Shown: piece by piece, positions 1-62,032 of the stretch
Position numbering within the stretch: position 1 is the first letter of the stretch
Layout: every line of letters begins with the position of its first letter
Assembly: GCA_963514005.1 (NCBI GenBank)
Contig: OY740790.1
Location: forward strand, 45,570,001 to 45,634,000
Source of the DNA: Raja brachyura
Lineage: Eukaryota
Length of the DNA: 64,000 nucleotides
Direction: 5' to 3'
The notes under the pieces: generated by a model
What the model was told of the DNA's origin: nothing
What the model saw: only the letters and a program-made list of their open reading frames with translations
Database searches by the model: none
Translations under genes and position numbers: made by a program

Positions 1-2049
1 AATGTTATAACTATCTTTGGCACATTTTCAGGATTTAGGATTAACTGGAATAAAAGTGAAATTATGCCTATAACAGGAATTAACTTAAATATATTACAAC
101 AATATCCATTAAAAATCGTTAAAGACAAATTTAAATATTTAGGAATTAATGTAACTAAATCTTATAATTCATTAATTAAATCTAATTACCCTCTATTATT
201 AGATAAACTTAAAAAATATATTTTGTACTGGAAAACACTTCCCATATCCATGATTGGTAGAATAAATGCTATAAAGATGGTGTTTTTACCACAATTATTA
301 TATTTGTTCCAGGCTATTCCTTTTTTTCTCCCAAAGACCTTTTTTAAAAAAATAGATAATATTATTTATAGTTTTATTTGGGATTATAAAAATCATAGAA
401 TAAGTAAAAAACATTTATGTAAATCTAAGATAAATGGAGGATTAGCACTTCCAAATTTTTTATATTATTTTTGGGCAGTCCAGATTAAGAATATGAATTT
501 TTGGTGGGTAAATATGGATTATGAACCAATGTGGTTAAAGATGGAAAAGGAAGATTGTTTACCCTATAATGTAGGCTCGGTTCTCTTTGCCCCAAAGGAA
601 GTACAAAAAAAATTTATAGGGACAACCCTATAATTTATAATAATAGACGTATTTGGAAACAAATAGTTAAGACTTTACAGATAGATAATCTTTCACTTAG
701 ACTACCAATAATGAATAACCCATTATTTAAGCCCTCTATATTGGATGGAGGGTTTAGACATTGGGATGATTTAGGAATTAAAAGGATAGAGCACCTTTAT
801 AGAAAAGGAAAATTTCTTTTATTCCAAGAGTTACAAGATATCTACGGATTGTCTCCGCATCACTTGTTTAGGTACTTACAAATTAGAGATTATATAAAAT
901 CAAACACATTAGATTATAAAAATAAAGTACCAGGATTATTAGATGATTTGTTTAATTTACACCCAAATACAGAAAAATTAATAGCCTATATATATAACAT
1001 AATCTTGGATAAGGAGAATCCAACAACTGAAACATATCGGCAAGCATGGGAAAAGGAAATCGGTTTATCCATAACAAAAGAAAATTGGGAAGAAAGTTTA
1101 CAGCAAATACATTGGTGTTCGTTAAATGCCAGACATACATTGATACAATTCAAAGTATTATACAGATTACACTATTCAAAAACTAAATTAAATAGTATCT
1201 TTCACAATCTCTCTTCAATTTGTGATAAATGTAAGAACTTAGAAGCAAATTTAATACACAGTTTTGCTACATGTTCCAAACTGAATTACTACTGGACAGA
1301 AATTTTTAAGGTTATTTCTGAGGTTCTAAAAATTAGATTGGATCCAGACCCAAAGTTAATAATACTTGGGATTTTGGATTCAAATTCGGTACTTACAGGA
1401 AATCAAAGAAATTTCTTTGATTACTGTTTGATAATAGGGAAAAAAATCATATTGAAATTTTGGAAGGGAACATTATCCCCCACAATCAAAATGTGGGCAG
1501 CAGAGATGTTGGAGACGTTACAATTAGAAAGAATCAGATTTGTCCTATTGGACAAATATAATACTTTCGAACAAATATGGTCTCCATATATACAGTATCT
1601 AGAGAAGTAGCTGTTCTTGACGTCACAGCCTGACGGGTACCCAGCGGGATTTGATGAGAATAATTGATTCTTATACTAGGATTAATAGGCATGTCTTCAT
1701 TGATATTATTATTTGTAATAGTTTTAGATACAATATATTTTGTTGATTTTCATTGACATATATATATATATATAATATTTTTTCACTTTTTGTTAATCTA
1801 TAATCTTTTTTCCTTGCTCTATTTTCTTCTTCTTTTCTATATAATCAAATTATTATTTAATCACTTTCTTATTGATTTAAAACTATTCTATTCTTTTCTT
1901 TATTTCCAAAAAAATAGAAGATGATAACTGTCAATGGGTTATTTAAAAAATAATATGTAATTAAGCTGAGGTTTGTAAAGCTGTTTACATTATTGTAAAT
2001 AGATTACTTCTAATAAAATAAAGTAATCAAAAAAAAAAAAAAAAAAAAA
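1..2049 (+). mobile_element. L1-clade LINE, 3' part: ORF2 RT C-terminus and Cys-rich domain, 3'UTR, poly(A) tail; 5' part lies outside the window
   Basis: The frame is open from base 1 (FGTFSGFRINWNKSE..., KYLGI, GRINAIKM..LP, GGLALP) and continues in ORF 711-1610 (QFKVLYRLHY, C-x2-C...H..C motif CDKC...HSFATC). One frameshift in the A8 run at 605-612. AATAAA at 2012-2017 and A21 tail at 2029-2049. Confidence 0.93.
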
Positions 2050-4390: not shown

Positions 4391-4749
4391 TCTCTAGTGG
4401 GTAGGATAAACTGGAGCACTCTGTGGCTCTAGTATCATTCCCCAGTGCCAAGCTTATTCCCTATTTCCAGTTACAATATCTGTTGGAAATGTCAACTTTC
4501 AGCATCACCCTCACCTCACAACCTGCATCCTTTTCAGCTCTAATTTATGCCACTAAGTCTCTGATAAAACTCGTTCATACCACAGCACACACATTCCCTC
4601 TGGCTCCGCTAATGTAGTTATTCATTTGAGGCTGGGACTATGCTGATCAACTCAGTAGGCCAGTTAGCATCTGCAGAGGGAAATGTACAGACGATGTATT
4701 GGGTCGGGCCCCTTCTTTAGGTCTGGCTCAAATAAATTACTTGACCTTA

Positions 4750-6592: not shown

Positions 6593-6792
6593 CATTCATA
6601 TTTGAAATGTGCTAAAATTGGACCTCAATTTCCTAATGACCTCTACTCAAATCAGTGCAATTCCCAACTGTCTTTTTGGATGAAGAAACTCTGATTGTAT
6701 ACAAATCAGTGAAGATAACAAGCAGGAACAGCAACCAATTATGAATGTTGGCCTTTGTTGCAAATGGAATAAGATTGAAGATCAAAAGATCA

Positions 6793-7105
6793 AGTGTGTA
6801 GGAAGGATTTGCAGATGCTGGTTTAAACCCAAGAGACACACAATGCTGCAGTAACTCAACAGGACAGGCAGCATCTCTGAAGAGAAGGAATGGGTGATGT
6901 TTCAGGTTGTGACCCTTCTTTAGGTTGTCATGGAAAAGGGAAATGAGAGATATAGATGATGATGTAGAGATATAGAACGAATGAATGAAAGATATGCAAA
7001 AAAGTAACAATGATAAAGGAAACAGGCCAAATAGCAAACAGCTTACAATGGCCTGTTTCCTTTATCATTATAACTTTTTGGTATATCTTTCATTCATTTG
7101 TTCTA
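6793..7105 (-). mobile_element. Penelope-derived repeat with a degenerate hammerhead motif and an inverted (fold-back) end
   Basis: 6793-6920 matches the family at 40811-40942 and 34597-34690; 6973-7029 and 7049-7105 are near-perfect inverted repeats. Confidence 0.7.
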
Positions 7106-11849: not shown

Positions 11850-11982
11850 GAGAAACAAGGAACTGCAGATGCTCGTTTACAAAAAAAGAAGACATAAAGT
11901 GTTGGAGTAACTCAGCTGGTTAGGCAATATCCCTGGAAAACATGTATTAGATGACATTTCGGGTTGGGACCCCCTCTGACTG
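11850..11982 (-). mobile_element. Penelope-derived short repeat (degenerate hammerhead motif)
   Basis: ggaactgcagatgct...ggagtaactcag...gacatttcgggttgggaccc matches the family. Confidence 0.65.
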
Positions 11983-12775
11983 ACTAAATGAGTTGGAAGG
12001 GGGGGGAAGGGTGGTTGGAAGAAATCTAAAAGATAGCTAGAAGAGATTTGGAAGCTGTTGCTAGTCATCATCTACATTAGAATAGATTACAGGATTTTGT
12101 TGCCCCATTCTCCATGCCAACTCCGAAATATGGTCCAGGTATATTAAGTTTAACTGTCCTAATTTGAGTTATAAAATGTGCAATATGTTGCAACAGTTTA
12201 TGTGCCATTATTAGCTTAGTTAATATCTAGAGTTGTTGACTGATAATGAAAACTGGCTTGATTAAGGACTGCTTCAATAAAAACCCTGCCCTACTGGATA
12301 TATAATCCCATTGATTTGCTGGAAGGTAGGTTAATTAGCTGCTATAAATTATCTGAGTGTTTGTTGGTGGCAAGAGAGTCATGGTGAAGTTGATAATATC
12401 TGAGAGAGAATTGGAGGAATGAAGCAGGTGGGATTAATCTGAGTTCCGCCATAAAGAGCTGAATGGCCTCTTGCTAACATGTAAGAAAATATATGCCTAA
12501 ATATAACAGGGGTTGGAATTGGCGATGGTATGGCATATTCCCACAACACCATCCAGTCTCGTTGTTGAAAATAAGAATCTGTTAAATCTCAGATTTCAGG
12601 CTCAGGAATGGAAGATGATCTTGGGTGAACTCTGGGAAAGCAGGTTGTCTTGCATGGAATTCTTAACAGAGCAAGGTCAATTAACCTACCAACCCACGCA
12701 TCAATGGAATCACACACTTGTGCATACACACACGCGTACACATGTACATACACACATGGCAGTAAAGATCAGAGT

Positions 12776-13008
12776 AGAAACATGGAACTGTGGATGCTGG
12801 TTTACAAAAAAAAACCAAAAGTGCTTGAATAGCTCAATGAGTTCGGCAGCAACTCTGGAAAAAATAGATAAGTGATGTTTTGGGTTGGAACCCTTCTTCA
12901 GACAGGAAAAACTGAAAGGTCACAACCCAAAAGGTCACCTATCCATGATCTCCAGAGATGCTGCCTGATCCAATTAGTTACTCCAGCACTTTCGGGTTTT
13001 TTTTTGCA
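12776..13008. mobile_element. Inverted pair of Penelope-derived hammerhead-type repeats
   Basis: Minus copy at 12776-12903 and plus copy at 12912-13008 face each other across about 8 bp. Confidence 0.7.
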
Positions 13009-24179: not shown

Positions 24180-25370
24180 AGATTGCTGATGCTGGAATCT
24201 TGAGGAAAGTACAAACTGCTGGAGTTATTGAGCAGGTCAGACAGAGGCTGTGGAGGGAAATGGGAGGATCACATTTCAGGTCAGGCTCTTTTTTAGAACT
24301 GATGGAATAGAGGAGGAAAGCTGGTTGAAAAGGATAAAGGGAAGAGGTGGTCAAAGGCTAGTATGCATTAGGCAAGTCTGGGTATGGAAGAGGTGATTGG
24401 TAAATGAGTCGGGGAGAGAGAAAAGGTGGAGACAACTAAGGCTGGATATGGCATGAACAAGGGGTGCAAAGGGTAGAATCTGATTAAAAAAAAAAGAAAG
24501 GTGGGGAATCAAAGCGAATTATGGTGGATAAATGGGAGATAAGAGACATGAGGGGAACTGGTTGGGCTGCTGTTTCAGGATGAAATGAGTGGTCCTGAGA
24601 CCTTGATGGGGAATGAAAGAGTAAAGGGAATTGGATGTCCATGTTAATGGTCCAGTGGTGGGTGCCAAGAAATTCGAAGTTGTTGAGGTGAAAGTGCGTC
24701 TCTAAGATTTCCCAGATCAGAAGTCCTGTTTGTGGATTTTGCAACTTATGGTAGAAGCGAGAAGCCTCACATTGGGGGCTGTGGAGGTAAGATTGCGGGG
24801 ACTGATGAGATCTGTGATGGTTTGGGAGACAGTGGCTGATATTTGTCGGTGGGGTTGTGGTGAAGGGATGGTGTCAAAGATGGTGTCCTAACCTCAGTCC
24901 ACCAGACTACAATGACATCACCCTTTCCTGCAAGTTTGAAGTTGGGATTAGAGCACAGTGAGTAGAGGCAGTGTGTTCAGAGGGGTGGAGATTGGATTGG
25001 AGAGGGGACTAGAGAAGTCAAGACTGTAAATGTCACAGTGGCAGCTGAAAATAAAAGAGTCGAAGAGGGTAGGTGGCTGGCAGGCAGGGGGTGTCCAAGA
25101 GGAAAAGTCAATGAGTGTTGGAAGTGCGAAAAATGTTCATCAGTGGTGAGCCATGACTCCTTGCCAAAGAAACAGGCATGGAGGCAGAGGCAATGAAAGA
25201 AGAGTAAGACATCATAATGGGTTCAGAACTGTGCCCCAGCCTGTGCTGAGGAAAGATAGCTGAGTATCAGAGGAGAGTGCGGAACTAGTGAAAAAATGAT
25301 ACGGGTAGGGACTGGGGCCACACCGCTAGATCCCACTTCTCTTCAAACTGGGGTCCCCAGCACCATGGAA
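24180..25370 (-). mobile_element. Old Penelope-like element remnant
   Basis: Hammerhead-type terminal repeat at 24185-24300; the minus strand near 24894-24940 reads KLAGKGDVIVVWWT, a decayed form of the Penelope RT motif KPADKGGAVVVW. Confidence 0.55.
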
Positions 25371-31712: not shown

Positions 31713-33096
31713 AAAAGGAATGGCCCAAGTACAATGACTATGGTAATTAATCCCAGCCATTGGTAACATACTGCAAATAAAAATGGAGCCTTAACCAAAG
31801 AGGAAAAAAAAATCACACGGTGATCACAAGTGATCCCTGTCCAGTGATTGCCACTGGCTTTTAGAGGACAGTCTTGGTGTCAGTGTAATACGTTGATATG
31901 AGGAGCATAATGGTGAACTGACTGAGGAACCATCCAGAGGTTAACTTCAATGAAAAAGTATGGTGGGAAGAAATAAATGGAAATTGAGGAAGGGTGAAAT
32001 ATCACATTTGATAGATGATTTTTCAAATATGGTTCCCATAGTGGTGTTCAGCAGGCGAAAAGTCCATAAATGTTCCAACAAAATTCTCACGTTGACTTCT
32101 CTAAGCTAACAAGAAATTCTGAACTAAACATCTTTGTCGTCCCTATACCTCTAGCAACAAATCGATTATTGTTTTGTGCTTTAACACCCACCTCAAATTT
32201 TGATCGCATTCCCCTTGCAGTATTTCACATTAAAGATCATTTGAGCAGACTGGAATTTAAACTTTTTTGGGGGTTAAACTAGAGGTTTCTGGACCTCTTC
32301 CAACCGCCACCCAGTAAAACTGCCATAAAGTGTGTTTTATTTTGCCAGATTTAATAACCTACTATGCAGTTTTAACATTTTACAACAGTCTACAAAAATA
32401 ATGAGTTTGTTTGGTGTTAGTGCCTGGTGATGTATAGCACTCTTTTATCAGTTGAATTTGGTCAGTTTTTGGAAAGCTTGTTAAATGGAATGTTATGTCT
32501 TGAAACCCTGAGGGAACTGTCTGAGAGTTAAACAACCTACAGAAAGATTCATGGGGAATGGAGTTCCAGGCTGAATATCACCATTGCTTCTTACAACTCT
32601 AGTTTACTTTCATGGAAGGATGTCCCATAGTAAAAGAGCTATTCACGTGTTGGGATTCTTATTAAAATGCAGATAACAGAAAGTGAGCTTGGAAAATTGA
32701 ACAATAAATATTCACCTTTATACATTGTGATTGGTTTTTCAGTTCCCTGAAATGCTTAGATTTAGAACACAATTTTTTAAGTATTCCAGTAGAACTTTCC
32801 TATCAAGTGTGAGTAATGTCCTGCAGTGCACAATGAAAGAAAAATGTCATGTGATTAAATATTTTAAATAAAGATACTTTCGAATAGCCGATCCTAAAAT
32901 GGCGATTATGAAAAATAGCACAATTTAGCATTTTAAGCAAAAGGTTTTGTGTATTGCTCACGATTCCAGTGCTTGAAGTCACTTGTATCTCCAATTTGGC
33001 ATATTAATTGTTTGAGGGCAAACTAACTCTTCACAAATTTCATGTTTCAACCTGCTTCACAAATTCTAATTGTAAACAATTCTCTAAGTTTTTAAG

Positions 33097-33190
33097 TCTG
33101 AAGAAGGGTCTCGACACGAAACATCGCCTATCTCCTTCGCTCCTTAGATGCTGCTGTACCCGCTGAGTTTCTCCAGCTTTTTGTGTAACG
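33097..33190 (+). mobile_element. 94-bp hammerhead-motif mini-element with 15-bp target-site duplication
   Basis: CTCTAAGTTTTTAAG at 33082-33096 and 33191-33205; the interior starts tCTGAAGA AGGGTCTCGACAC GAAA CATC. Confidence 0.85.
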
Positions 33191-33384
33191 CTCTAAGTTT
33201 TTAAGCCTTGACAGATAAATATCATGTTTCTGTTGCTGTATAGCTTGCTTAAGCATTAAAATGCAACTTATACTATTATACGTCCAATATTTCAAACTAG
33301 TCCATGTTTACTAGTCATAATTTTCATAGCTAAGGGAAAGTCTACAAGGATTTTTTTTGAAAAGACTGATTTTGTTTGAATAAA

Positions 33385-34591: not shown

Positions 34592-34630
34592 TAGTTCTGA
34601 AGAAGGGTCTCGACCCGAAACGTCGCCTAT
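34592..34630 (+). ncRNA. Minimal type-I hammerhead ribozyme motif (Penelope-associated), within a short repeat ending at about 34690
   Basis: CTGAAGA (34597-34603), A, stem II GGGTC-TC-GACCC, GAAA, C-GTC cleavage triplet (34622-34624); palindromic ACGT in place of stem III. Stem I pairing is weak and activity is untested. Confidence 0.6.
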
Positions 34631-35092
34631 CTCATTTGCTCCTTAGATGCTGCTGCACCCGCTGAGTTTCTCCAGCCTTTTGTGTACCCTCTGATTCTAG
34701 CTTGATAGATTGCCTGCAACTTTTGCTTATGCTGGAAATGGCATTCAAAAGCAGTCTCTTATCTTATTTGTTACCACCTGAAAACAAGGCAATTATTTCA
34801 TTGTTCATTATTCAGAAATTCTCCCATAGTCTACCAACATCTATCAGCATACATTTATTATTATACATTAATAGTTTGCCTCCTTTAAAACTCTGGAGTG
34901 GAAACCATTGGGCACCAAAGATCTATTAATCATTTTATCTGATTGTTTAAAAAAAAGTGATGAGAAATAAACATTCTTTTTAAATCATCATATTGAATTT
35001 AGGTAGCTCCTTCTCTCAACATACGTTGCTTGTAGCTCGGGTTATATAAATTTTTTCCATCACAAGACTCTTATCCTCTAAAAGAAAGGAAT

Positions 35093-36592: not shown

Positions 36593-36790
<198 letters not shown>

Positions 36791-37020
36791 TAATTGGATT
36801 TAAAAATTCAACTCTACCTTTTGTAATTCACTTATCACCAAGTGACATGTAAATGGTGCAGAGAGATCTCTCAATTTTCAGCACACCTCCTACGCACATC
36901 CTTGTGCTGCATCTGTACAAATATCTCCAAGGAAATAATAAGTAACTTCTAAATTATCAATTCTAATTTAACTTCCTTGACTATTTGCCTCCACAGTCTT
37001 TTGCAAGAGACTAGAATGGT

Positions 37021-37058
37021 GGGGGGGGGGGGGGGGGGGGGGGGAGGAGGAGGAGGAG
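37021..37058 (+). repeat. G24 homopolymer plus (GGA)n tract
   Basis: Read directly. Confidence 0.9.
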
Positions 37059-37644
37059 TTTATCCCAATTAAATATTGGGAAAGTTGAAGCTGTCATCTT
37101 TAGTGCTTGCCGCAAAGTATCCTCATTATATTTGAAAACTCACAAATTGCCTATGTATTTGTATTTTGTTTCTACAATGATTTAAAAACTGGAAAACAGA
37201 AACCACTGGTTTCACTTAAAAATGTATTATATGTATATAATTGTAGAATTTTTTTCGCAATTATATCGTTCTTGAAATTGCACAAACTACTGCTTGATTT
37301 GTTAATGCAGCCAGTGTACTGTTAAATCTTTTATTTTTATGTTGGCTACAAATAAGAATCCATGCACAAGAAGTGTCCATCAAAGGATTTAGTCATTTGT
37401 CCATCTAACTTCTAACTGCACTAATTTGTGTAATGTTTCTAAAGACATTAGTTGCCTTTCTCCTTGATCAAGCCTCTACCATAAATATTAACAGCAAATT
37501 TGGGTTTGGGTGCAGTGTATCACAATATCATCAGTTTTTAACTCCACGAGAACTTTTTTAAAAATCGGTAATTCTAAGGGAGTGACATAAATTTCCAGCT
37601 GCTTCAAATCTGCATGCATTTTCCACGTGACGATGGACCAGAGT

Positions 37645-37885
37645 TACATAGAAACATAGAAATTAGGTGCAAGAGTAGGCCATTCGGCCCTTCGAGCCTG
37701 CACCGCCATTCAATATGATCATGGCTGATCATCCAACTCAGTATCCCATACCTGCCTTCTCTCCATACCCTCTGATCCCTTTAGCCACAAGGGCCACATC
37801 TAACTCCCTCTTAAATATAGCCAATGAACTGGCCTCAACTACCCTTTGTGGCAGAGAGTTCCAGAGACCCACCACTTTCTGTGTT
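37645..37885 (-). mobile_element. CR1 3' tail
   Basis: catagaaacatagaaa tail followed by taggtgcaagagtaggccattcggcccttcgag... Confidence 0.88.
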
Positions 37886-38897
37886 TAAGCAAGAGTTGTG
37901 ACCACCCAATTCTTACCAATGAAACTCCAGACTTGCAACAATATAACTGTAATGACCTTGCCAGCCACTCCGTTTAAGCATTGTTGGGATTTAGTATTAA
38001 TTGCTGGCCTTGTCATTGACAGGCCACATTCTGTCTACTCTTTGTGTCTACAGTTAATTCTCAAAGTGGACACGAATGATGGGTATGGGATAGGCTTGCT
38101 GTAAATTATTACAGAGGCAAATACTTTGCATTTTCGTATTGGAAACATCTTTCCAATTCCCCCCCCCCCCAGAAAAAAAAGGAATTGCACTGGACAGAAT
38201 AGATCTATTTTGGTTAAAATACTGTGGACAAGTTGCTTCACTAGTTTAACATACATTTACTGAAACCCAAAATAATTTATTTGACTTGAACTTGGGTGCA
38301 TGAAATGACAATGGCCAACTAACCTCGGTTGTAAAGCCCCAAACTTATGTTGCTGTTCTAACATGGTGGAATGCTCTAGGGAATGGGAATATTCCATGAA
38401 TCTGGGGATACTCTGAACATGGTATGTAAATTTACAACACTTTGAGATGTAGTAGTCGGTATCATCCTGCATTGGACTGCATGTACCTGTCCTTGGGTGA
38501 AAAACAAATTGCCATTAATAATTGCCTTGCATTTTCTATGGAACCATTGTCATTGATTTTCAGCACCAGGACATAAAAACATTGAAACCTTTTAGTTCAT
38601 CAGTGCATTTGACACTGCGTATGGCAACTCAAGATGTATATATTATGTGTACTACAAGTTGCCTTTTCGATTTTTGGGTTGCTTTCATCGTTCCATGATC
38701 TTAAAAAAAGTACAGGCAGATTGTTAAACAGATTTGAACAGAAGATTGCAGCTGAGGTTGTAGTTTCATGTCATAGTCCAGTATTCTACCACTGAAGCTG
38801 CTCAGCTGCATTTTAGTTTGTTGTATTAATTTGCCGGACTATTTTTTGACATAAAAACAACAGAAGAACCTTTTTGAGTTTAATTGCAACCGTTTGA

Positions 38898-39197
<300 letters not shown>

Positions 39198-39339
39198 TAA
39201 TCTATTGTTAGAATCTTTTGTTAGACATGTGGTATTGGAATGTTTGGCAATAAACCATATGGTTGGGCAGGGTAGGCACTTGTTTATAAAAACAAATCAT
39301 CTTTGTTCTGAGAACTAATTTCAGTTGTTACTTATCAAG

Positions 39340-40220
39340 GTATGTATGAGGTTTGATGTATTTGAATTTTCAAAAGGCATTTGATAAGTTCAAGTGCTTA
39401 TTACAAATTAATTTCTCTTCATTCCTACAAACCTGAATTAAGAATCTGTTGAGACACTAAATGGATATAAATAGCTCATTTTCAGATTAACACGTTTGAA
39501 TTATTGGTAAATCTCAGACATACTCTCAGCATTAAACTGAAGGAAGGGTACTATGAGGAGGGTGCAAATTTGCTCCAAGGATGTTAAATATGAAAATAAA
39601 AGGCAGATTAAATTTAATATGACTTAGAAAATGGTGCATTTCAGCAGAAAAAAAAGGTTTCAAACAGACTGGGAAATGTTGATATTTAGAATATCCAGAT
39701 TGTACTTGGACATGAATCAAAGTTAATATGGAGGGGTAGCAATTAATTAAGAAGGCAATGGTTTTTGCTCTCATTACATACCGATTTTGGTACGGGTAAA
39801 AGAATATTAAATAGTGCAGTGTTCTTAGTAAGGGCCTATGTTGTGGACTCCCTACCCAAGGAAGGGTATCCTTGGAGAAACGCAATACAGGTTGATACAT
39901 GAGATGAGGTGTAGGAGGGTGCATTTTCCTATGGAGATGCCTATTTTTGCCCAGAATTTAGAAGATAATCTCTCAAACATTTCAAATGCTTGGGAGCTTG
40001 GCAGATTCAGAGCAGAGAGAGTGCTGGCTTTAACTGGACAATCTGGAATGTCTCAGTAAATCTTTAAAATACTTGATCCAAGAGTGATGTGGAGAATTTT
40101 AAATTTTGATACAGAGAATCATTTCATTTGGAAATACTATTGGCATGATCTTATTGAATAGTGAAGCACTCTCATCAGGCCAATGGACAGAGTGATTGAT
40201 CTACTCCTGCTGCAGTTTCT
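39340..40220 (+). mobile_element. Highly decayed CR1-like LINE
   Basis: Remnants of DFQKAFDK-coding DNA at about 39365-39390 and a decayed CR1 tail near 40140-40215. Confidence 0.5.
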
Positions 40221-40680
40221 CAGGGGAGTTGCGCAGTGAGAGTGCTATATCCTAAGAGCGGTTACTGTAACAGGACAGTCCACCATTTAAAAGGCTGTCC
40301 ATTAAAAATTCATGCAGTCAAAGTAATATAATGACAGATCAATCTGTCATACCAAATATTTATTAGTAAGTGAATCTGATGCCTCAGGTGCTGCATGAGG
40401 TCTGCCTCTCTTGCTGATTATTTGGTGCAGAATCTGTATAGACTGCTGTCCTGGAATACCAGTTTTATTTAGCCTTGTGCAGAAGGATTTTATCTGCACG
40501 TCATTATATATAATGTTGTGTTTATTATATTCAGTGAATGGTGAAAAGACAATTGCCTTTTGCAGATTTAAAACTTTGGTAATATAACAAATTATTTAGT
40601 GTAATTTTAGCAGTCATCGTAATGAAACAAATCGTGGTGAAAATATAGTTATTCTATGTGTGGTTCACTTTATTAAACAG

Positions 40681-40806
40681 GATCAGGTGGTGAAAGAAGA
40701 TAATATTGATGCTGTTGGTAAAAAACTGCAGGAATACCATAACCAATATCAGGATAAGAGTAAAGAATATGACCGGCTTTATGAAGAATACACAAGGACG
40801 TCACAG
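40681..40806 (+). CDS. PIK3R3: PIK3R3 coding exon 5 (iSH2)
   Basis: [42 protein letters not shown]; aaacag| acceptor, CAG|gtatgt donor. Confidence 0.97.
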
Positions 40807-40810
40807 GTAT

Positions 40811-40942
40811 GTGCAGGAAGGAACTGCAGATGCTGGTTTAAACCGAAGATAGACACAAAAAGCCGAAGTAACTTAGTGGGACAGGCAGCATCTCTGGAGG
40901 GAAGGAATGGGTGACGTTCTGGGTCGAGACACTTCTTCAGAC
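40811..40942 (-). mobile_element. Penelope-derived hammerhead-type short repeat
   Basis: The minus strand reads gtCTGAAGAAGTGTCTCGACCCAGAACGTCACCCATTCC...; the GAAA core is mutated. Confidence 0.8.
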
Positions 40943-41683
40943 ACGTCTCTACTGGATTGTGTTATAATCTCAAATGCTAGTTTTGACTCTTTCTTCTATT
41001 CAAATATCATCAGCCATCTTTTAATCAGATCTTGTGGACCTAAGCAACCAGCAATGATACACTGTGGATAACCAGCTAGGCTAACTGAAGAGACATGAAT
41101 TTATAATTGAACTTGAATTTATAATTTAAGTCTCTTCATTCACATTTAGGGCATCCAAAAGCACTTGACAACATGATTTTATCTAATGTGTGTTTTTGGT
41201 TGAAACATGCTGGGGATTACTACTTTCTTCGGAGAGAGCATACAGGGCTTCATTTTTAAGTTTTGAAAGCAGGCCTTTCAATTCTGCAGTTATGCCTCAA
41301 TATGGCAGCGTGTCTCATCATAGTTTTTGGTATGCAGGTCTATAAATTCAAACTTAAATCTGGAATCTTCCAACTTGCCAAGTGTCCCAGCTGCTAAGCG
41401 ATGGCGAGCACTGAGTTTGATGTATTTATAAAGACTGAGGCAAAGAGGGGGAAGGTGAAAGCAGTGCAGGGCTGAACAATGGGAATAGGATATTTTTGTC
41501 GTTTTTTTTCAGGGTGCTATCGGAAGTTCTTGGGGAGCAAATTACAAAAGATTGTAACAATTGCTTAAGGTTGATTGTTCAATGGACTTTTTTATTTTGC
41601 AATATGGAAATTACTTTAGTTTGGGTAGCTAATACTGGTAATGACAGTGTTGGCACTTATCGTGTGCGGAATATGATGGTTTA

Positions 41684-43300
41684 CAGTGCCCTCCATAATG
41701 TTTGGGACAAAGACCCATTTATTTATTTGCCTCTGTACTCCACAATTTGAGATTTGTAATAGAAAAAAATCACACATGGTTAAAGTGCACATTGTCAGAT
41801 TTTAATAAAGGCCATTTTTATACATTTTGGTTTCACCATGTAGAAAGTACAGCGGTGTTTGTACATAGTCCCCCCCATTTCAGGGCACCATAATGTTTGA
41901 GACACAGCAATGTCATGTAAATTAAAGCAATCATGTTTAGTATTTTGTTGCATATCCTTTGCATGCAATGACTGCTTGAAGTCTGCGATTCATGGACATC
42001 ACCAGTTGCTGGGTGTCTTCTCTGGTGATGCTCTGCCAGGCCTGTATTGCAGCCATCTTTTTTTGTGCTTGTTTTGGGAACTAGTCCCCTTCAGTTTTCT
42101 CTTCAGTATATAAAAGGCATGCTCAATTGGGTTCAGATCTGACGATTGACTTGACCACTGAAGAATTGACCATGTTTTAGCTTTGAAAAACTCCTTTGTT
42201 GCTTTAGCAGCATGTTTGGAATAATTGTCTTGCTGTAGAATCAACCATTGGCCAAAGGGTTTTGAGGCATTTTTTGGAACGAGCAGATAGGATGTGTCTA
42301 TAAACTCCAGAATTGTTTGTGCTACTACCTTCAGTTGCATCTTCAATGAAGAGAAGGGAGCCAGTACCGTCAGCAGCCATACATGCCCAGGCCATAACAC
42401 CCCCACCACTGTTTCACAGATGAGGTGGTATACTTTGGATCTTGGGCAGTTCTATCTCTTTTGCATACTTTGCTCTTGCCATCACTCTGTTATGTTAATC
42501 TTCGTCTCATCTGTCCACAAGACCATTTTCCAGAATTGTGGTTGCTCTTTTAAGTACTTCTTGGCAAACTGTAACCTGGCCATCCTATTTTTGCAACTAA
42601 CGAGTGGTTTCATCTTGCAGTGTAGCCTCTGTGTTTCTGTTCATGAAGTCTTCAGTGGTCAATGACAAATCTACACATGACTCCTGAAGAACGTTTCGGA
42701 TCTGTCAGACAGGTGTTTTGGGATTTTTCTTTATTATAGTGAGAATTCTTCTGTCATCAGCTGTGGCCTGCCATTCCCTTTGCGATTAGTAAGCTCACCA
42801 TTGCTCTCTTTCTTCTTAATGATGTCCCAAACAGTTGGTAAGTCTAATGTTTGGCCGATGTCTCTAACAGTTTTATTCTTGTTTCTCAGTCTCATAATGG
42901 CTTCTTTGACTTTAATTGGCACAATTTTGGTCCTCATGTTGATAAACCACAATAGAAGTTTCCAAAGGTGATGGAAAGACTGGTGGAAAGACCAGGTGCT
43001 CAAAGCTCTCTTATACCTGCATGAAGGAGTCAATTGAATACACCTGAGCAATTACAAACACCTGTGAATCCATGTGTCGTAAACATTATGGTGCCCTGAA
43101 ATGAGATGGACTATGTATAAACACAGCTGTAATTTCTACATGGTGAAACCAAGATGTATAAAAATACCCTTTAATAACATCTGACCATGAGCACTTTAAC
43201 CACATGTGATTTTTTTTTCTATTACAAATCTCAAATTGTGGAGTACAGAGGCAAATTCATAAATGATGGGTCTTTGTCCCAAACATTATGCAGGGCACTG
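41684..43300 (-). mobile_element. Full-length (1617 bp) defective Tc1-family DNA transposon, IR/DR type, DD34E transposase pseudogene
   Basis: TA TSD at 41682-41683 and 43301-43302; about 220-bp TIRs starting CAGTGCCCT; inner direct repeats near 41881 and 43075-43100; minus ORFs with a paired-like HTH/GRP motif (42734-43051) and QQDN-x33-E (DLNPIE, 41999-42409); frameshifted. Confidence 0.95.
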
Positions 43301-44252
43301 TACATACTTGGATACTGCCGTCAACTTTCAATTAATATGTAGGACTGTACGATCTGCTAATCATCACTTTGGCTTTTTGAAAGAACCAATGAGTATTCAA
43401 GAGCTATCTTTCAAACATTGCTACCTTAAAATGTATTTAGTCGTGTTTGGTTGGATTTTTTTTTAAAGAGGTGACACGCTACCTTTGTGGTTTGCTTCAA
43501 GCTGTGTGCTGAGGCCAAGTCTTTCAAAATGCACACTTTGCAGCCTTGTTATTATAAAAACACTTTTTTCAATGAAGTTCACTAACTTGTGGTTCTTGGA
43601 AAAATTGTTACTAAATCTTTCAAAGATTGGATTAAAATATACTTGTCCCAAAATCCCTTTTTTTCTTTTATTTGGAATGTTTTGGCATCTACTTTAGTTA
43701 AATTGTGAGTGTACTTGGATAAGCTTTGTCTTATGTTTGTGCAAGCATTCTTGTGTTCAAAGTGGCCTGTTGATCTCTTACAGTACTGAGTTTGTCCTCA
43801 AACTCTAGCTCTCTTTGGCTAGTGATAGAATAGTGATGCATTAGTATAAATCTAGAAATCATGTGATAGCAATTTATTTCCCCCTCTATCTATTATTAAT
43901 TGAAACCATTGCACAGATGTTGATACAGTACTGTGATTGTATTGTGGGATAAGTTTCACATTGACAGAACTTCTCAAATTTTGTTTCTCCTTGTTAAACA
44001 TTTCACTTAAGCTATGGTTTGCAAAATGAGCTGGAAATTTAGACCCTTCACCAAAAAAATTGCATTGTATTGGTGATATGAGCTGTTTGGTTTCAGGGCA
44101 TTGGTAACTCTATCCCATCATGAAAATTGAGATTACCCTTTAAGAAGAGTTGACCAACTTTATTAATAGCAGTGGTTAATGGGCAAACTATTACATTGTT
44201 TACAACTGATAAATTGGTCACTTAACCATAAAACTGATCTGAATCTTAACAG

Positions 44253-44395
44253 GAAATACAAATGAAGAGAACTGCAATTGAAGCCTTTAATGAAACAATA
44301 CAAATATTTGAAGAACAGTGTCACACTCAAGAGCGCTACAGTAAAGAATATATTGAAAGATTTCGCAGGGAGGGCAATGAGAAGGAAATTGAACG
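44253..44395 (+). CDS. PIK3R3: PIK3R3 coding exon 6 (iSH2)
   Basis: [47 protein letters not shown](R); taacag| acceptor, CG|gtatgt donor. Confidence 0.96.
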
Positions 44396-45363
44396 GTATG
44401 TTGTTTTGCTTTTACTCAAATAATAACTTAATGAAGTAACCCTAATCTCTCACAGAATACAACTAATATTAACTGTCATTTAAAAGTTCAACACAGGGAG
44501 GTCATTCAACTAACATGACCTGTACCTTTGTGTATGCTCCCACCTGCGTCCTTCCCATATACCCTTCAGCTTGGAAGCATAAACTGACTTCCTTCCTTGC
44601 TATCTCTTGGATCTCAGACAAAAACTGCAATTGTTGTAAATCCTAAATAAGAGCCAAAGTTATGAGAAATCCTCTCCAACACCAGCATTTCTAAAAAGAG
44701 AGAACAGTTAATGTCTCCAGTCAATTACTTTTCATTAGAACATGCATTTCTTGGCTTTTATTCAATTTTAGATCTGCCTGTTTTTAAATTAATTCCACAA
44801 TATGCATTTGTCGCATTTAAACCTAATTTTTCCACTGTTAACTATCCCCTGGTTTGATGACATTAGCTAACTGATACATTCAGAAACTGAATCCAGCTGA
44901 TCAGTTCATTTCACAATAAGAATCTCCTTCATAATGTACTTAAATCACTGGAATGGGAGTAAGTCTTTTAGCCCCTCTTATTGGTTGTGCTCTTCAATGA
45001 GATCATGCCTAATCTGAATTTAATTAACCTCAGACTATTCTTCCTAAACCCTGACATTCCAATGAGTGGAAATATTGTCTTGCTGCCTCCTGTTGTTCTA
45101 CTTTATTATCTTCAACATTACCATAAAATGCCATATATTGAAGGCATGCAGTGTTTAGGATAATTTTGTATTCATAAAGCGCATCCTATGTAAACCTACC
45201 TCAAGTCAGCAATATACACAAATATCCTGTCAGGTTATAAGATACAGGAAAGGTGAATTTGTGAAAGACTTTGTAAAGTTTGACTCAATAAATATAAACC
45301 ATTAGCACCATTCATGTAGTATCCCGATGTGCAAACTGAAACAAACCTTCCCTTGTATGCCAG

Positions 45364-45540
45364 GATAATGATGAATTATGAAAAACTCAAATCTCGTCTT
45401 GGGGAGATCCATGACAGCAAGATGCGCCTGGAACAGGATCTGAAGAAACAAGCGTCTGATAACAGAGAGATTGACAAGAAAATGAACAGCATCAAGCCAG
45501 ACCTTATTCAGCTGCGAAAGATCAGGGATCAGTACCTTGT
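45364..45540 (+). CDS. PIK3R3: PIK3R3 coding exon 7 (iSH2)
   Basis: [58 protein letters not shown](V); tgccag| acceptor, GT|gtaagt donor. Confidence 0.97.
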
Positions 45541-45640
45541 GTAAGTAGCGACACAAAATAAATGACATTAAATTTACTTTATTGACAGGCCATACTTGGC
45601 TGAGTGTAACAATTAACAATTTATGTCTGTCCATTTGCAG

Positions 45641-45715
45641 ATGGCTCAATCACAAAGGAGTACGTCAAAAACGAATAAATGACTGGCTAGGAATCAAAAA
45701 TGAAAATACAGACGA
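45641..45715 (+). CDS. PIK3R3: PIK3R3 coding exon 8
   Basis: WLNHKGVRQKRINDWLGIKNENTD(D); follows a 100-bp intron; ttgcag| acceptor, GA|gtgagt donor. Confidence 0.96.
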
Positions 45716-45799
45716 GTGAGTGTAATTTTTCATGTAAATACTTGTTAAACTTCAAGCTGAAATAGTAATACAGTTACTATTATCCTTGCAACTGTTAAC

Positions 45800-46078
45800 G
45801 TTAGATTTTAGAGATACAATGCGGAAACAGGCCCCTTTGGACCACCCTGTACACTAGCACTATCCTACACACAAGGGACAATTTATAATTTTACCAAAGC
45901 CAATTAACCTACAAACTATGTCTTAGGAGTGTGGGAGGAAATCTGAGCACCCGGAGAAAACCCACATGGTCACAGGGGGAATGTACAAACTCGTACAAAT
46001 AGTACCCATAATTAGGATAGAACTCGGGTCTCTGGCGCTGGAAAGCAGCAGATCTACTGCAACGCCACTGTACCACTG
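45800..46078 (-). mobile_element. tRNA-derived SINE (HE1-like)
   Basis: gagtgtgggaggaaatctgagcacccggagaaaacccac...ctctggcgctg...gccactgtacc, the reverse of the SINE head and core. Confidence 0.8.
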
Positions 46079-46527
46079 TTTTCTTTTAGACTAATTTATA
46101 AATGCCAATATCTTTCAATCTGTATCCGTACAGCACTTGGAAAGGTATTGGCTCGGAAGTACATTTCTTTTCCACTTTAACTAGGAGTTGAGCAACTGCT
46201 TTCAAGTAAACCTCCTCTGAGTGTTAGTGACTAAGAGTCAGCTTCCAGGATTCTTCCTTGTTGTGGTAATGTAGCCAAAATAGCATTACAAAAATGTTGA
46301 AGGAGATGGTTATTTACAATAAAACATGACTTCAACATTTTATGAGTAAAAAATTCTACTTTGATCTACTTTGTTTTAAGTGCAATAGGGGATAGAAATC
46401 AGTGATACATTAATTTACCTGGTTAGCAAATAGGAAAAGGTTGATGTTGTATCAGAAAATAGTTAAGAGAAGTGCATATTTTCAGATTTGCAGTATTCTA
46501 GTTTTGTCTTTTTTTAATTGAATTGAT

Positions 46528-47040
46528 TAGAAACATAGAAAAATAGTTGCAGGTGTAGGCTATTCGGCCCTTCGAGCCAGCACTGCCATTTGATACGATC
46601 ATGGCTGATCATCTAAAATCAGTACCCTGTTCCAGCTTTTCCCCATAACCCTTGATTCCTTTAGCCCTGAGAGCTAAATTGACCTCCCTCTTGAAAACAT
46701 CCAGTAAATTGGCCTCCACTGTCTTCTGTGGCAGAGAATTCCACAACTCTCTGGATTGAAAGACACAGCATGGAAATAGGCTCTTCAGCCAACCAAGTCC
46801 AGGCCAGCTATCGGTCACACATTCAAACTTGTTCTGTCTTGTTCCAATTTCACATCTTCAAACTAGGGACAATTTATAGAGGCCAATTAACCTATAAAAC
46901 CACATGTCTTTTGGATGTGGAAATAAAACAGATCACCGGGAGGAAACTCACATGGTCACGGAGAACATGCAAACTCCACACAGGCAGCACTTAAGTCAGG
47001 ATTAAAACTGTCTGGCGCTGCAAGGCACCATCTGTGGCAC
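46528..47040 (-). mobile_element. CR1 3' tail (46528-46750) abutting an HE1-like SINE (46760-47040)
   Basis: tagaaacatagaaa tail and WNSLPQKTVEA..FKRE in minus ORF 46609-46818; SINE core follows. Confidence 0.78.
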
Positions 47041-47615
47041 CTTTAGCTGGGAGAAGAATAAATATGCTTTAAAACTGTTGATTCTGTAGGAAACTTCACT
47101 AATCTTGGAATCAATATCTATTTTCCAGGAGTCCAAATTTGGTGCTGCTCCTCATTACATTTTCAAAGCACAATTCAAAGCATGCTTTTCTATCTGTTGG
47201 CAAATCATTAATTGTGCAATTAATCATGTTATCCAGATTATATACATTGGTTTTGTAATGGTGAATGTCAAGCTAATGATTTAAATAAGTGGTTGTGTTG
47301 TCATGAATACCTCAGAGGTCCAGTAGAAAGATAGTTTCATCTCTTCACTTTTTAAGTAATGGAGCCAATTCTATGTGTCTCGGCCATGTTGATCTATTTA
47401 AATGGGCTTTTGACTCGATTGTTTGGAAAAACCTTTGTGCCATTCATTATACCAGTTTAATAGTGTGTACGCTGCAATGTTATTAGGATAGGGTTCCTAT
47501 TTAGGTTTGGTTTGTAGTCGTTGACATTTGGGTACAAAATAAAGTATTGATAACATCACTGACATGCACTCTGCAGGTTTCAGTAAGTAACTTGTTATAT
47601 ACAATTTCACCTCAG

Positions 47616-47786
47616 CACATATTTCATGACTGAAGAAGATGAAAATCTTTCTCACTATGATGAAAAGACCTGGTTTGTAGGAGCTATTAATCGAACACAA
47701 GCTGAAGATTTACTTCGAGGAAAATCAGATGGTGCCTTCCTAATCAGAGAAAGCAGTAAAAAGGGCTGTTACGCTTGTTCTGTGGT
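47616..47786 (+). CDS. PIK3R3: PIK3R3 coding exon 9 (cSH2)
   Basis: [56 protein letters not shown](V); cctcag| acceptor, GT|gtaagt donor. Confidence 0.96.
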
Positions 47787-49720
47787 GTAAGTAACTTAGA
47801 TTTTTTTTATTAAGGATTTATTTTGGCATATCCAAAAAATTACTAATGTTAGATTGGATTTTTTCTTCAATTAAAATTGCATATGTGGCTGTCCTGTTAC
47901 TTGGAGGAAATGTGCAGAATTTTATTATACATTTACAATTTGTCATCTAAATTCATTTTTGATATTTGTACAAATGTGTTGCCCATTTTTCATACTTTGC
48001 AGTCCTTATTGAGGTCCTGTTCTACCCTTCATCAAATGCCAATGATCTTCATATGTTTCCTTGAATCATTGTCACTCTTGGTTTGTTAAAACAGCAAATC
48101 GGGTGGTATTAAAGGAAGAACAAAAGCACAGCAACATTGCTTCTGATTGAAACTGTCAGTGGAGAAAGGGGGACATTGAAAGCAAGATTCTAGTCACTGA
48201 ACAATGATATATGCATAAGCTTGTTAGTTTTGGTGTGGAAGAGATAATGCAAATTGGATGTGAGGTGTCATTCGACATGATGGGATGTGAAAATCAGTCG
48301 AAGGATAGAAGGGAATGCATAGGAGAGGTATCAGAGCATTAGCATTTTTCTATGCGAGGTGTGATATAGATGAGTTGTATGCAAGACAGGTGTCTTAATG
48401 TTAAGGATGTATCAGTACAGCTTTCTTTTCCATGATGTTCATAGAAATCTCTTTACCTTCTGCCAGACGTTTTTGGAATTTTATTTTCACTCGTCCAATT
48501 TCCACAGTTTGGGGCCAGACCTAGGGCAGGGCTCATCCTATGGGAAGCCAGCACTTCAGAACAAGTATCGAGGGATATATTGAAGGCTTTGTCTGCAAGG
48601 TCTGGCACATGACCAGTACTCTGTGTGACCGACTGAGCAGTTCGATATGCTTCAGAAGGGTGATTGTGCTGAAAAAGAATGCCTTTCTGCTGCATTCACA
48701 ATAAACCACAGTAAAAATCCAAAATCCTATTGCCACAAACAATTAAAGCAGTCTTTCTTCTGGTTGGAAGACCTTGGTGGCACTTTGACCAGCTGCATGG
48801 TAAACTTCTATATATAGTTGCCAATATAACACATGGGCATAACTTTATATGAGAGATTATTTTTTTATTACTTCAGTAGCTGCCCAAAAAAGCAGACGTA
48901 TGAAAGAGAGATAATTGTGCAAAATAATGAATTTAAATTGTATCCTAAACCTTTGAATTTTCAGCAAAACTGTTTGGTAATTGCAAAATATAGACAAATG
49001 ACTAAAGTAACAGATTCCTAAGAAATTTTATATCCGAATTGGAATCTCAAAAAATTACCATTGATTTTGCCATGACATGGGAACAAAACTCTAGTATGTT
49101 AAAGGAAATGATAGTCACTTTTTGAAATGCAAGTAAAATCTTTCATTTACACTTTGTGGTAACAGTAGCTGTAGTCAATTTGTGGTACAGATTCATATAA
49201 GAATAATTACAAACTATTTATTGCTAGGTCTACAAAGACATATTAAAGCAGAATCTATTATTTTGTATATAAAGTTAACAAAGATATGATTTTCGTTTAA
49301 CGATTTGGAAGGTGAATCTTCAAATTGATTCTGACTATTCAAGTTCTGCATTAAATTAGACTTTTCAGTAATTTCAGGTCACTGAGATTTTGCTGTGAGC
49401 AACTGTCATATTGACCTTTTGATCAGGAAATGAATTAGGAAGACATAGTGTTTGAACCAAAGAGATTGCTAGTTTTAATTCTTGCCATGTAGTGAATGTC
49501 TTATGTCGACAAATTAAACTTGGAATTCTCAATAAATTGTTCATAAGCCTTGAGTGGTGTAGAGGGAGGAGTAAGATAATCTGAAAGAGATAAAAATTGC
49601 CAAAATATATGAAATGTATTTCAGCCATTTTCTTGTAATTATATGAATGGAATAAGTTACTTGACTAAAATGTGCTGTGAACACTTTCTCTTACCGTACC
49701 TTGTTGCATCTTCCCCTTAG

Positions 49721-61725: not shown

Positions 61726-62032
61726 ACCGGAGAAGGGGAAAAATACACAAACAATGAGCAGATTTCACTGAGAATTTAAAAAAAAAAATTTTTTTAAATT
61801 CAATTCTGAAATAACACAAAACATTGGAAACATTTAGGTCAGGCTGCATCTGTGGGGAGTAGGGAAGGAAGAACGTATTCAATGTTTAGGGTCAAAGACT
61901 GCTGCGAGATCCTAGCATTTTCTGCTTTCTTTCCAGTATCATCTTTCTCGGCGATTAGAAATGGCTATGACATGACCCTAAAGGCTCTTTCTCGAGATAG
62001 AATCTTCTAACTCGTCCAATTCCTCCTTTACA

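Follow-up and report, generated by a model that had tools for sequence, protein, structure and literature searches.

The closest described counterparts of the insert analyzed here are endonuclease-bearing (EN+) Penelope-like elements (PLEs) of the Neptune and Nematis type, which, in the accessible portions of two accounts (Craig et al. 2021, PMC8557442; Arkhipova et al. 2013, PMC3846280), have the same ORF with reverse transcriptase (RT) and GIY-YIG domains, the same CX2-5CxxC linker, and the same hammerhead in their terminal repeat (pLTR) as the element that we describe. These portions also report the same 5'-truncated, partial-tandem and inverted insertions, solo pLTRs, short target-site duplications (TSDs), and an optional tail of 30-40 nt on one end. 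However, what is described there is truncation and no genome-wide accumulation of left ends at one 4-nt site, and the TSDs in our data measure 10-17 bp. In the PAc element (Poseidon, from Anolis carolinensis), RT starts at two internal sites that lie downstream of the hammerhead and bracket the tail, the same arrangement that our right ends suggest, and the template is uncleaved RNA; its protein needs sequence downstream of these starts, ribozyme activity is dispensable, and the target nick comes from the endonuclease (Frangieh et al. 2024, PMC11167929). The PAc ORF begins inside the hammerhead, whereas the first ATG lies about 30 nt past the tail here, and the text of the PAc paper, as far as it is available, gives no position at which cDNA synthesis stops on the 5' side (PMC11167929).

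Minimal type I PLE hammerheads have the same core and pairs as the motif found here, and the available sections of their description ascribe dispersed single motifs to truncated PLEs (PMC4209133). Animal non-LTR retrozymes share the origin from a PLE pLTR, the type I hammerhead and the non-coding nature of our short copies, according to the accessible part of a recent preprint (Li et al. 2026, bioRxiv 10.64898/2026.07.22.740005). There, however, the units form tandem arrays with one hammerhead each and are bounded by the cleavage site, whereas the copies here are dispersed monomers bounded by TSDs, together with inverted pairs, and their genomic ends are unrelated to the cut site. The original prediction of a retrozyme-like unit consequently did not hold, the copies being neither tandem nor cut-to-cut. 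Several reports, in their available text, already describe truncated and solo pLTRs, inverted ends, tails and dispersed minimal hammerheads (PMC3846280, PMC8557442, PMC6765202, PMC6155905), and Penelope promoters are described in similarly partial sources as internal, i.e., located within the pLTR (PMC2377424, PMC8557442). Our search of the full-text literature, with most subscription papers outside its reach, found no report of a genome-wide peak of left ends at the hammerhead. The statistics of the family are of greater interest than the insert itself, a dead by-product of the ordinary kind that a known retrotransposon class leaves behind: roughly 44,000 young copies record where RT starts, stops and jumps, and bear both on the Penelope cycle and on the role of the hammerhead, neither of which is settled (PMC11167929, PMC8557442).

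The insert lies in a window of 64,000 nucleotides, the whole stretch of DNA that was analyzed, within a host genome of 2.7 Gb that, judging by its repeats, looks like that of a cartilaginous fish. On the forward strand, a 15-mer at 33082-33096 recurs exactly at 33191-33205, the match cannot be extended in either direction, and the two copies enclose 94 bp (33097-33190) whose right end falls 65 nt past the presumed cleavage triplet. Exact 15-mer repeats spaced 60-200 nt apart occur 28 times in the window including this one, and 25 of the 27 others sit within tandem or low-complexity arrays. With element coordinates counted from the C that opens the hammerhead core (window position 33098 = 0), the final AG of the left TSD copy also matches the bases upstream of the core in the parent element, a microhomology because of which the true 5' end of the insert may lie 2 nt further left; this copy (L001) was scored with a 3-nt 5' extension. 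The TSD and the right end thus stand as originally predicted, as does the absence of a Pol III promoter and of a poly(A) tail, in that a crude scan of the insert gave no B-box-like match and its longest run of A is 3 nt. Folding predicts a stem-loop at 33155-33187 (plus strand), directly 5' of the short RT start site, with an outer stem that is weakened in this copy and with z-scores that are not significant at such a length. Of four contig sets compared, those from two organisms span the flank and carry both this insert and a second one at 34.6 kb, those from two others do not reach the flank, and no empty site with a single 15-mer was seen. The insert is located upstream of the first PIK3R-type exon that we found and in the same orientation as that gene.

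The left edge of the insert holds the motif of a minimal type I hammerhead (33098-33125, plus strand), whose features the available text of PMC4209133 gives as a CUGANGA core, GAAA, a helix II with G10.1-C11.1, an extra base between positions 9 and 10.1, a palindromic 15.2-16.2, and a UH triplet. Its parts are the core (33098-33104), an extra A (33105), helix II (33106-33117), GAAA (33118-33121), and a degenerate helix III with the triplet (33122-33125), after which the RNA would presumably be cut. This particular copy is damaged, with one helix II pair broken at 33116 and a change at 33123 that abolishes the 15.2-16.2 pair and leaves AUC as the triplet. Cutting by such a lone, mutated minimal hammerhead is unlikely in view of the result for monomers in the accessible part of PMC4209133. 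Across the family, the minimal features are present, and an intact motif occurs in 139 of the 184 short copies and in 39 of the 61 long ones; subfamilies differ by one-sided changes that keep the hammerhead pairs, and they include a second helix II subfamily.

Helix I comprises only 2 bp in the parent and its relatives, short of a criterion of 4-6 bp; the accessible text of PMC4209133 gives the same 2 bp for Drosophila virilis as opposed to 4-5 bp for Schistosoma mansoni. At the gathering level, Rfam gave no hammerhead match in the window or at the parent end, and in folding the hammerhead shape is not the predicted minimum. Of the predicted hammerhead insert, the motif at the left edge was confirmed, while the copy itself is mutated in two pairs and escapes Rfam. 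An Rfam match to a lncRNA at the parent end was dismissed as chance. A non-circularly permuted hammerhead (as in the available portion of PMC10085705) was also considered and rejected, the strand order here being that of plain type I.

A 23-nt probe from the right end of the insert has 43,778 exact matches in the genome, in line with the predicted abundance of the family, and many of these copies share sequence leftward for more than 1.5 kb, into an ORF. Three of six loci extracted at 9 kb are full-length copies of 3.97 kb, and the frame of 1204 codons is open in two full-length copies (L141 and L144). Its translation matches the Pfam models RVT_1 (E 2e-4) and GIY-YIG (E 2e-3), both below the Pfam cut-off, and these matches are still weak when the C-terminal half is used (E 3e-5 and 5e-4, respectively). 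With a single RT + GIY-YIG ORF, a pLTR in partial-tandem and inverted structures, and a tail on one end, the parent is an EN+ PLE. The linker that separates RT from EN contains a CX4CXXC motif, and CX2-5CxxC at this position is the mark of Neptune and Nematis elements in the available text of PMC8557442; this motif, from which we assign the clade, points to an element of the Neptune/Nematis type. Sequence identity between the insert and the terminal repeat of the 3.97-kb parent is 96%, and the insert is almost certainly a short by-product of this known element class; that Penelope inserted it, with a true TSD, agrees with the original prediction. Words sampled from the first 555 bases of the element are present at 64-87% in contig sets labelled as seven organisms (A-G), and the family is therefore near-identical across several species labels.

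The right ends are fixed. Among 250 copies, 115 end at +93 to +96, the short-tail class to which the insert belongs, and 72 at +127 to +131, and the difference is a tail of 36 nt; exactly one arm is long-tailed in 37 of 38 head-to-head pairs. We attribute the two right ends to internal RT initiation at two sites that bracket the tail, as in PAc (PMC11167929). Of 295 copies, 77 lie within exact TSDs of 10-17 bp (mode 14), compared to 1 of 295 in a shifted control, which makes the 15-bp TSD of our insert typical of the family.

The left ends are not random. Genome-wide, 18,948 exact copies stop directly before the core (2,719 at -1, 7,107 at -2, 4,511 at -3, and 4,611 at -4, the last count taking in fold-backs and other subfamilies), while 8,549 match through -20, a lower bound because the probe was longer; the counts cover positions -1 to -4 and -20. 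By comparison, at most 316 copies, point mutants included, have a purine directly before the cleavage site. In a sample of 91 distinct copies among the first 100 right-end probe matches listed, all from the initial 3.9 Mb of a single contig and with three near-duplicates among them, 8 end inside the unit (+19 to +51), 55 end between -8 and +7, and 28 extend further, with no end at +28. The boundary is thus real but not set by cleavage, contrary to the idea of ribozyme-defined ends that we had started from and have rejected. Ordinary random 5' truncation without a special boundary would explain why the 28 longer copies end at scattered upstream points, but 55 of the 83 copies at risk stop within the 16 nt at the core, about 60 times the upstream rate, and with the genome-wide ratio of 18,948 to 8,549 we give random truncation virtually no chance. 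Truncation of this kind was to have refuted the original prediction, which in this respect withstands the test.

Older families represented in our loci show the same fall in upstream conservation and the same boundary, and each of the five family groups that we tallied has the same four bases as the commonest before the core. The peak of left ends spans several bases, with its mode at -2 where copies adjoin target DNA and at -4 where they adjoin another copy after a template jump. One short copy (L199, at about 6,190,200 on contig C1 of genome G000) carries several hexamers of the vertebrate telomere type between its TSD and the core.

LTR elements offer a familiar precedent for a fixed cDNA end: their RT primes near the 5' end of the RNA and runs off it, yielding minus-strand strong-stop DNA, and may then jump. 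The Penelope stub presumably differs in that it is target-primed, uses no tRNA primer, and is itself integrated as the run-off product. In the explanation that we favor as probable, the insert represents a short pLTR copy that arose from an internal RT start and ended by run-off at the 5' end of the RNA, likely its transcription start. The endonuclease would nick the target, RT would start inside the front end of its own element's RNA, and it would run off the RNA 5' end 2-4 nt before the core to leave the 94-nt stub. The stop would thus be the physical end of the RNA and that end the capped transcription start, whereas longer copies would come from a second kind of template, an RNA of several units or a circle, which lacks an end at this point. 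Read from genomic copies, the fixed left edge probably marks an RNA start 2-4 nt before the core. The bases in front of the core resemble an initiator motif, and together with the internal promoters of Penelope pLTRs this makes a transcription start the likeliest cause of the fixed end. In D. virilis, transcription starts about 120 nt upstream of the hammerhead and behind an intron, in the available parts of PMC2377424 and PMC4209133, so that a start at the hammerhead is not a general layout.

Template jumps offer a second view of this end. The junction of tail and ORF occurs 751 times in the genome, and the 30 loci that we examined are mostly not full-length. Their jump products consist of a piece from the ORF start that ends at about +175 to +268 and is fused to a further copy at the left end of the latter; in L238-L267 and others, the piece mostly ends at +184 to +267 and is followed by an A-rich linker, a G, and the second copy. 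Such products may record short oligo(A)-tailed transcripts. Over all loci we tabulated 38 junctions, not all of them independent and with two non-core rows that are double counts or alignment artefacts, of which 21 fall at -6 to +4. The A-rich linkers end in G at 15 of 17 core junctions, with only 7% G among other linker bases, and at 4 of 8 non-core junctions (p 0.06 for core against non-core). These junctions indicate that RT had reached an end and jumped, and that the templates bore ORF sequence downstream of the tail.

A G also stands directly before 54 of 113 core ends (48%), compared to 16 of 54 upstream ends (30%) and 7 of 29 internal ends (24%), with p 0.005. Counted by eye among the first 100 matches listed, it precedes 52 copies of the -3 class and 62 of the -2 class, though slippage and fold-back on helix II of the element itself, which is rich in G, account for part of the excess at -2. 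The extra G could be the signal of a cap or an untemplated addition, and it need not be a cap.

The structure of the templates also bears on the proposal that the short copies are an independent, ribozyme-defined non-autonomous family with short masters of its own, SINE- or retrozyme-like and mobilized in trans. Fixed boundaries, TSDs and a very high copy number would all suit such a family, and non-autonomous derivatives of PLEs are known from the accessible text of PMC8557442 and bioRxiv 10.64898/2026.07.22.740005. However, we consider it very unlikely: the sequence is simply the pLTR of an autonomous parent, the ends do not match the cut site, the copies are not tandem, they have no common upstream flanks, and the ORF sequence downstream of the tail in jump products is not expected of short masters. 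In addition, a position-by-position comparison of the 184 short with the 61 long copies gave no significant difference (lowest p 0.07), with a mean distance to the majority base of 2.2/93 in short and 1.6/93 in long copies. Lacking any diagnostic site, the short copies form no separate lineage, and the variants common to both classes refute the original prediction in this respect. They likewise show no private diagnostic mutations that would mark a SINE-like family, and the insert has neither Pol III boxes nor a poly(A) tail. Annotators should be warned that Penelope stubs resemble a SINE family without being one. The stub, made in cis, is a dead by-product and not a replicating unit, although a minority of short copies could have been re-mobilized.

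Run-off at an RNA end has to be weighed against an intrinsic stop, in which RNA structure or a protein clamp would act just upstream of the core like the template boundary of telomerase. Such a stop would account for the same boundary in older families and for read-through by about a third of the short-start copies, and in a predicted fold of the RNA from -3 to +130 the core pairs with the end of the tail in a helix that closes at about -3 (z -1.9). Even so, the folds show no stable structure upstream of -3, and the G-ended linkers suggest a template end. In one full-length copy (L141:8184-8316), the same -3 to +130 RNA is predicted to form a rod in which the tail is paired with the core and with +48 to +55, and a stem precedes both RT starts.

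A further objection comes from long copies, for which 30 loci (L283-L312) were chosen at +347 to +547. Among 17 insertions that are continuous to at least +1796, 5 reach the core and pass it while none ends there; the remaining left ends fall at +122 to +183 (7), at +34 (2), or earlier (3). When L142 and an array on contig C1 are included, continuous copies that arrive from the ORF side pass the core in 7 of 7 cases, several of them more than once (p about 6e-4 given the pass rate of 0.35), and in three of the seven a single TSD encloses the whole insertion, one of which comprises 4.3 units. This uniform passage argues against an intrinsic stall, which we regard as rather unlikely overall, though in a variant the clamp may be active only near the RT start site. 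The absence of any end at the presumed start among the 17 continuous insertions also speaks against the simplest form of the run-off explanation, since a one-template model predicts some.

Several observations on long copies deserve mention in their own right. Near-full-length copies show a cluster of left ends at +122 to +183, where 7 of 14 copies at risk end within 62 nt and about 1 would be expected, and the two ends at +34 lie just after the cut site. The insertion of 4.3 units is a head-to-tail array of 17.2 kb (G000:C18:46,360,022-46,377,243; L313-L315) within one 14-bp TSD. It contains three identical units and a fourth with 6 differences; units may have been added by later local duplication or through assembly effects.

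Run-off could be reconciled with the long copies if there were two templates, an extension that we put forward only tentatively. A capped linear RNA starting at the hammerhead would give rise to the strong-stop-like stubs of 94 or 130 nt and to the template jumps. RNA cleaved at the two hammerheads and then sealed to a unit-length circle would be copied by rolling-circle RT into long and multi-unit insertions. This reading fits the 4.3-unit array in one TSD, the seven read-throughs out of seven, and the pile-up at +122 to +183, which would correspond to one turn of the circle. Circular templates have already been proposed by Cervera and de la Peña, as the available text of PMC4209133 documents. 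If true, a two-template cycle would provide a role for the PLE hammerhead and an account of how pLTRs form.

An RNA-processing site is a further candidate for the fixed edge, because every family group has a pyrimidine-rich tract and CAG before the core that could constitute a 3' splice site, in which case spliced or otherwise processed RNA would be the template. A donor-like site is present at the ORF start (about +160), and the D. virilis intron ends at helix I in the accessible sections of PMC4209133. However, the +160 donor is joined to the core in none of the 38 element-element junctions, and no good donor was apparent by eye in the 3' UTR. Searched over 45 nt for extra bases, the 54 core-class copies with TSDs divide into 22 without any and 32 with 1-44 mixed bases that reveal no common exon, and we judge processing of this kind to be improbable. 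Back-splicing from the ORF-start donor, for which the same 38 junctions gave no instance, was rejected.

Within the window, the second short copy of the family (34596-34698, plus strand) is independent of the first; its motif is intact and it has no direct TSD. The original prediction of a near-identical copy is thereby borne out in substance, with 8 differences in 93 positions instead of about 7, and with boundaries that need correction from 34597-34690 since the copy takes in roughly 10 nt of the tail and ends near position 34698. Relatives elsewhere in the window were sought by nhmmer, for which a shuffled window gave 0 matches. Eight of the ten that had been listed were recovered, i.e., those at 4.7, 6.8, 11.9, 12.8, 24.2, 40.8 and 61.8 kb as well as a weak one at 2.4 kb (E 0.04), while those at 7.3 and 44.7 kb gave no match. 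Old relatives on the minus strand lie at 4646-4721 (E 2.6e-5), 11855-11984 (E 2e-17) and 24183-24296 (E 3e-4), with a 3' fragment of another at 61812-61864 (E 3e-4). Two matches (E 1e-17 and 7e-17) form an old head-to-head, i.e., inverted, pair joined at the core (12775-12997). Two minus-strand copies belong to older families by nhmmer: one of the long class that reaches about 107 nt beyond the core upstream (6792-7029), and one with a long tail that starts at the core and sits 4 nt inside an intron of the PIK3R-type gene (40812-40942).

The window further contains a stop-free frame of 346 codons at 570-1610 (plus strand, 27% GC), for which Pfam gave no match, and a remnant of a DDE_3 transposase at 42,002-42,451 (minus strand, E 1.6e-6). 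The PIK3R-type gene spans 36,593-47,790 on the plus strand, with exons at about 36.6, 40.7, 44.3, 45.4 and 47.7 kb that include SH2, inter-SH2 and SH2 exons. The old stub at 40812-40942 now provides the +5 and +6 donor bases for the exon of this gene that ends at 40807.
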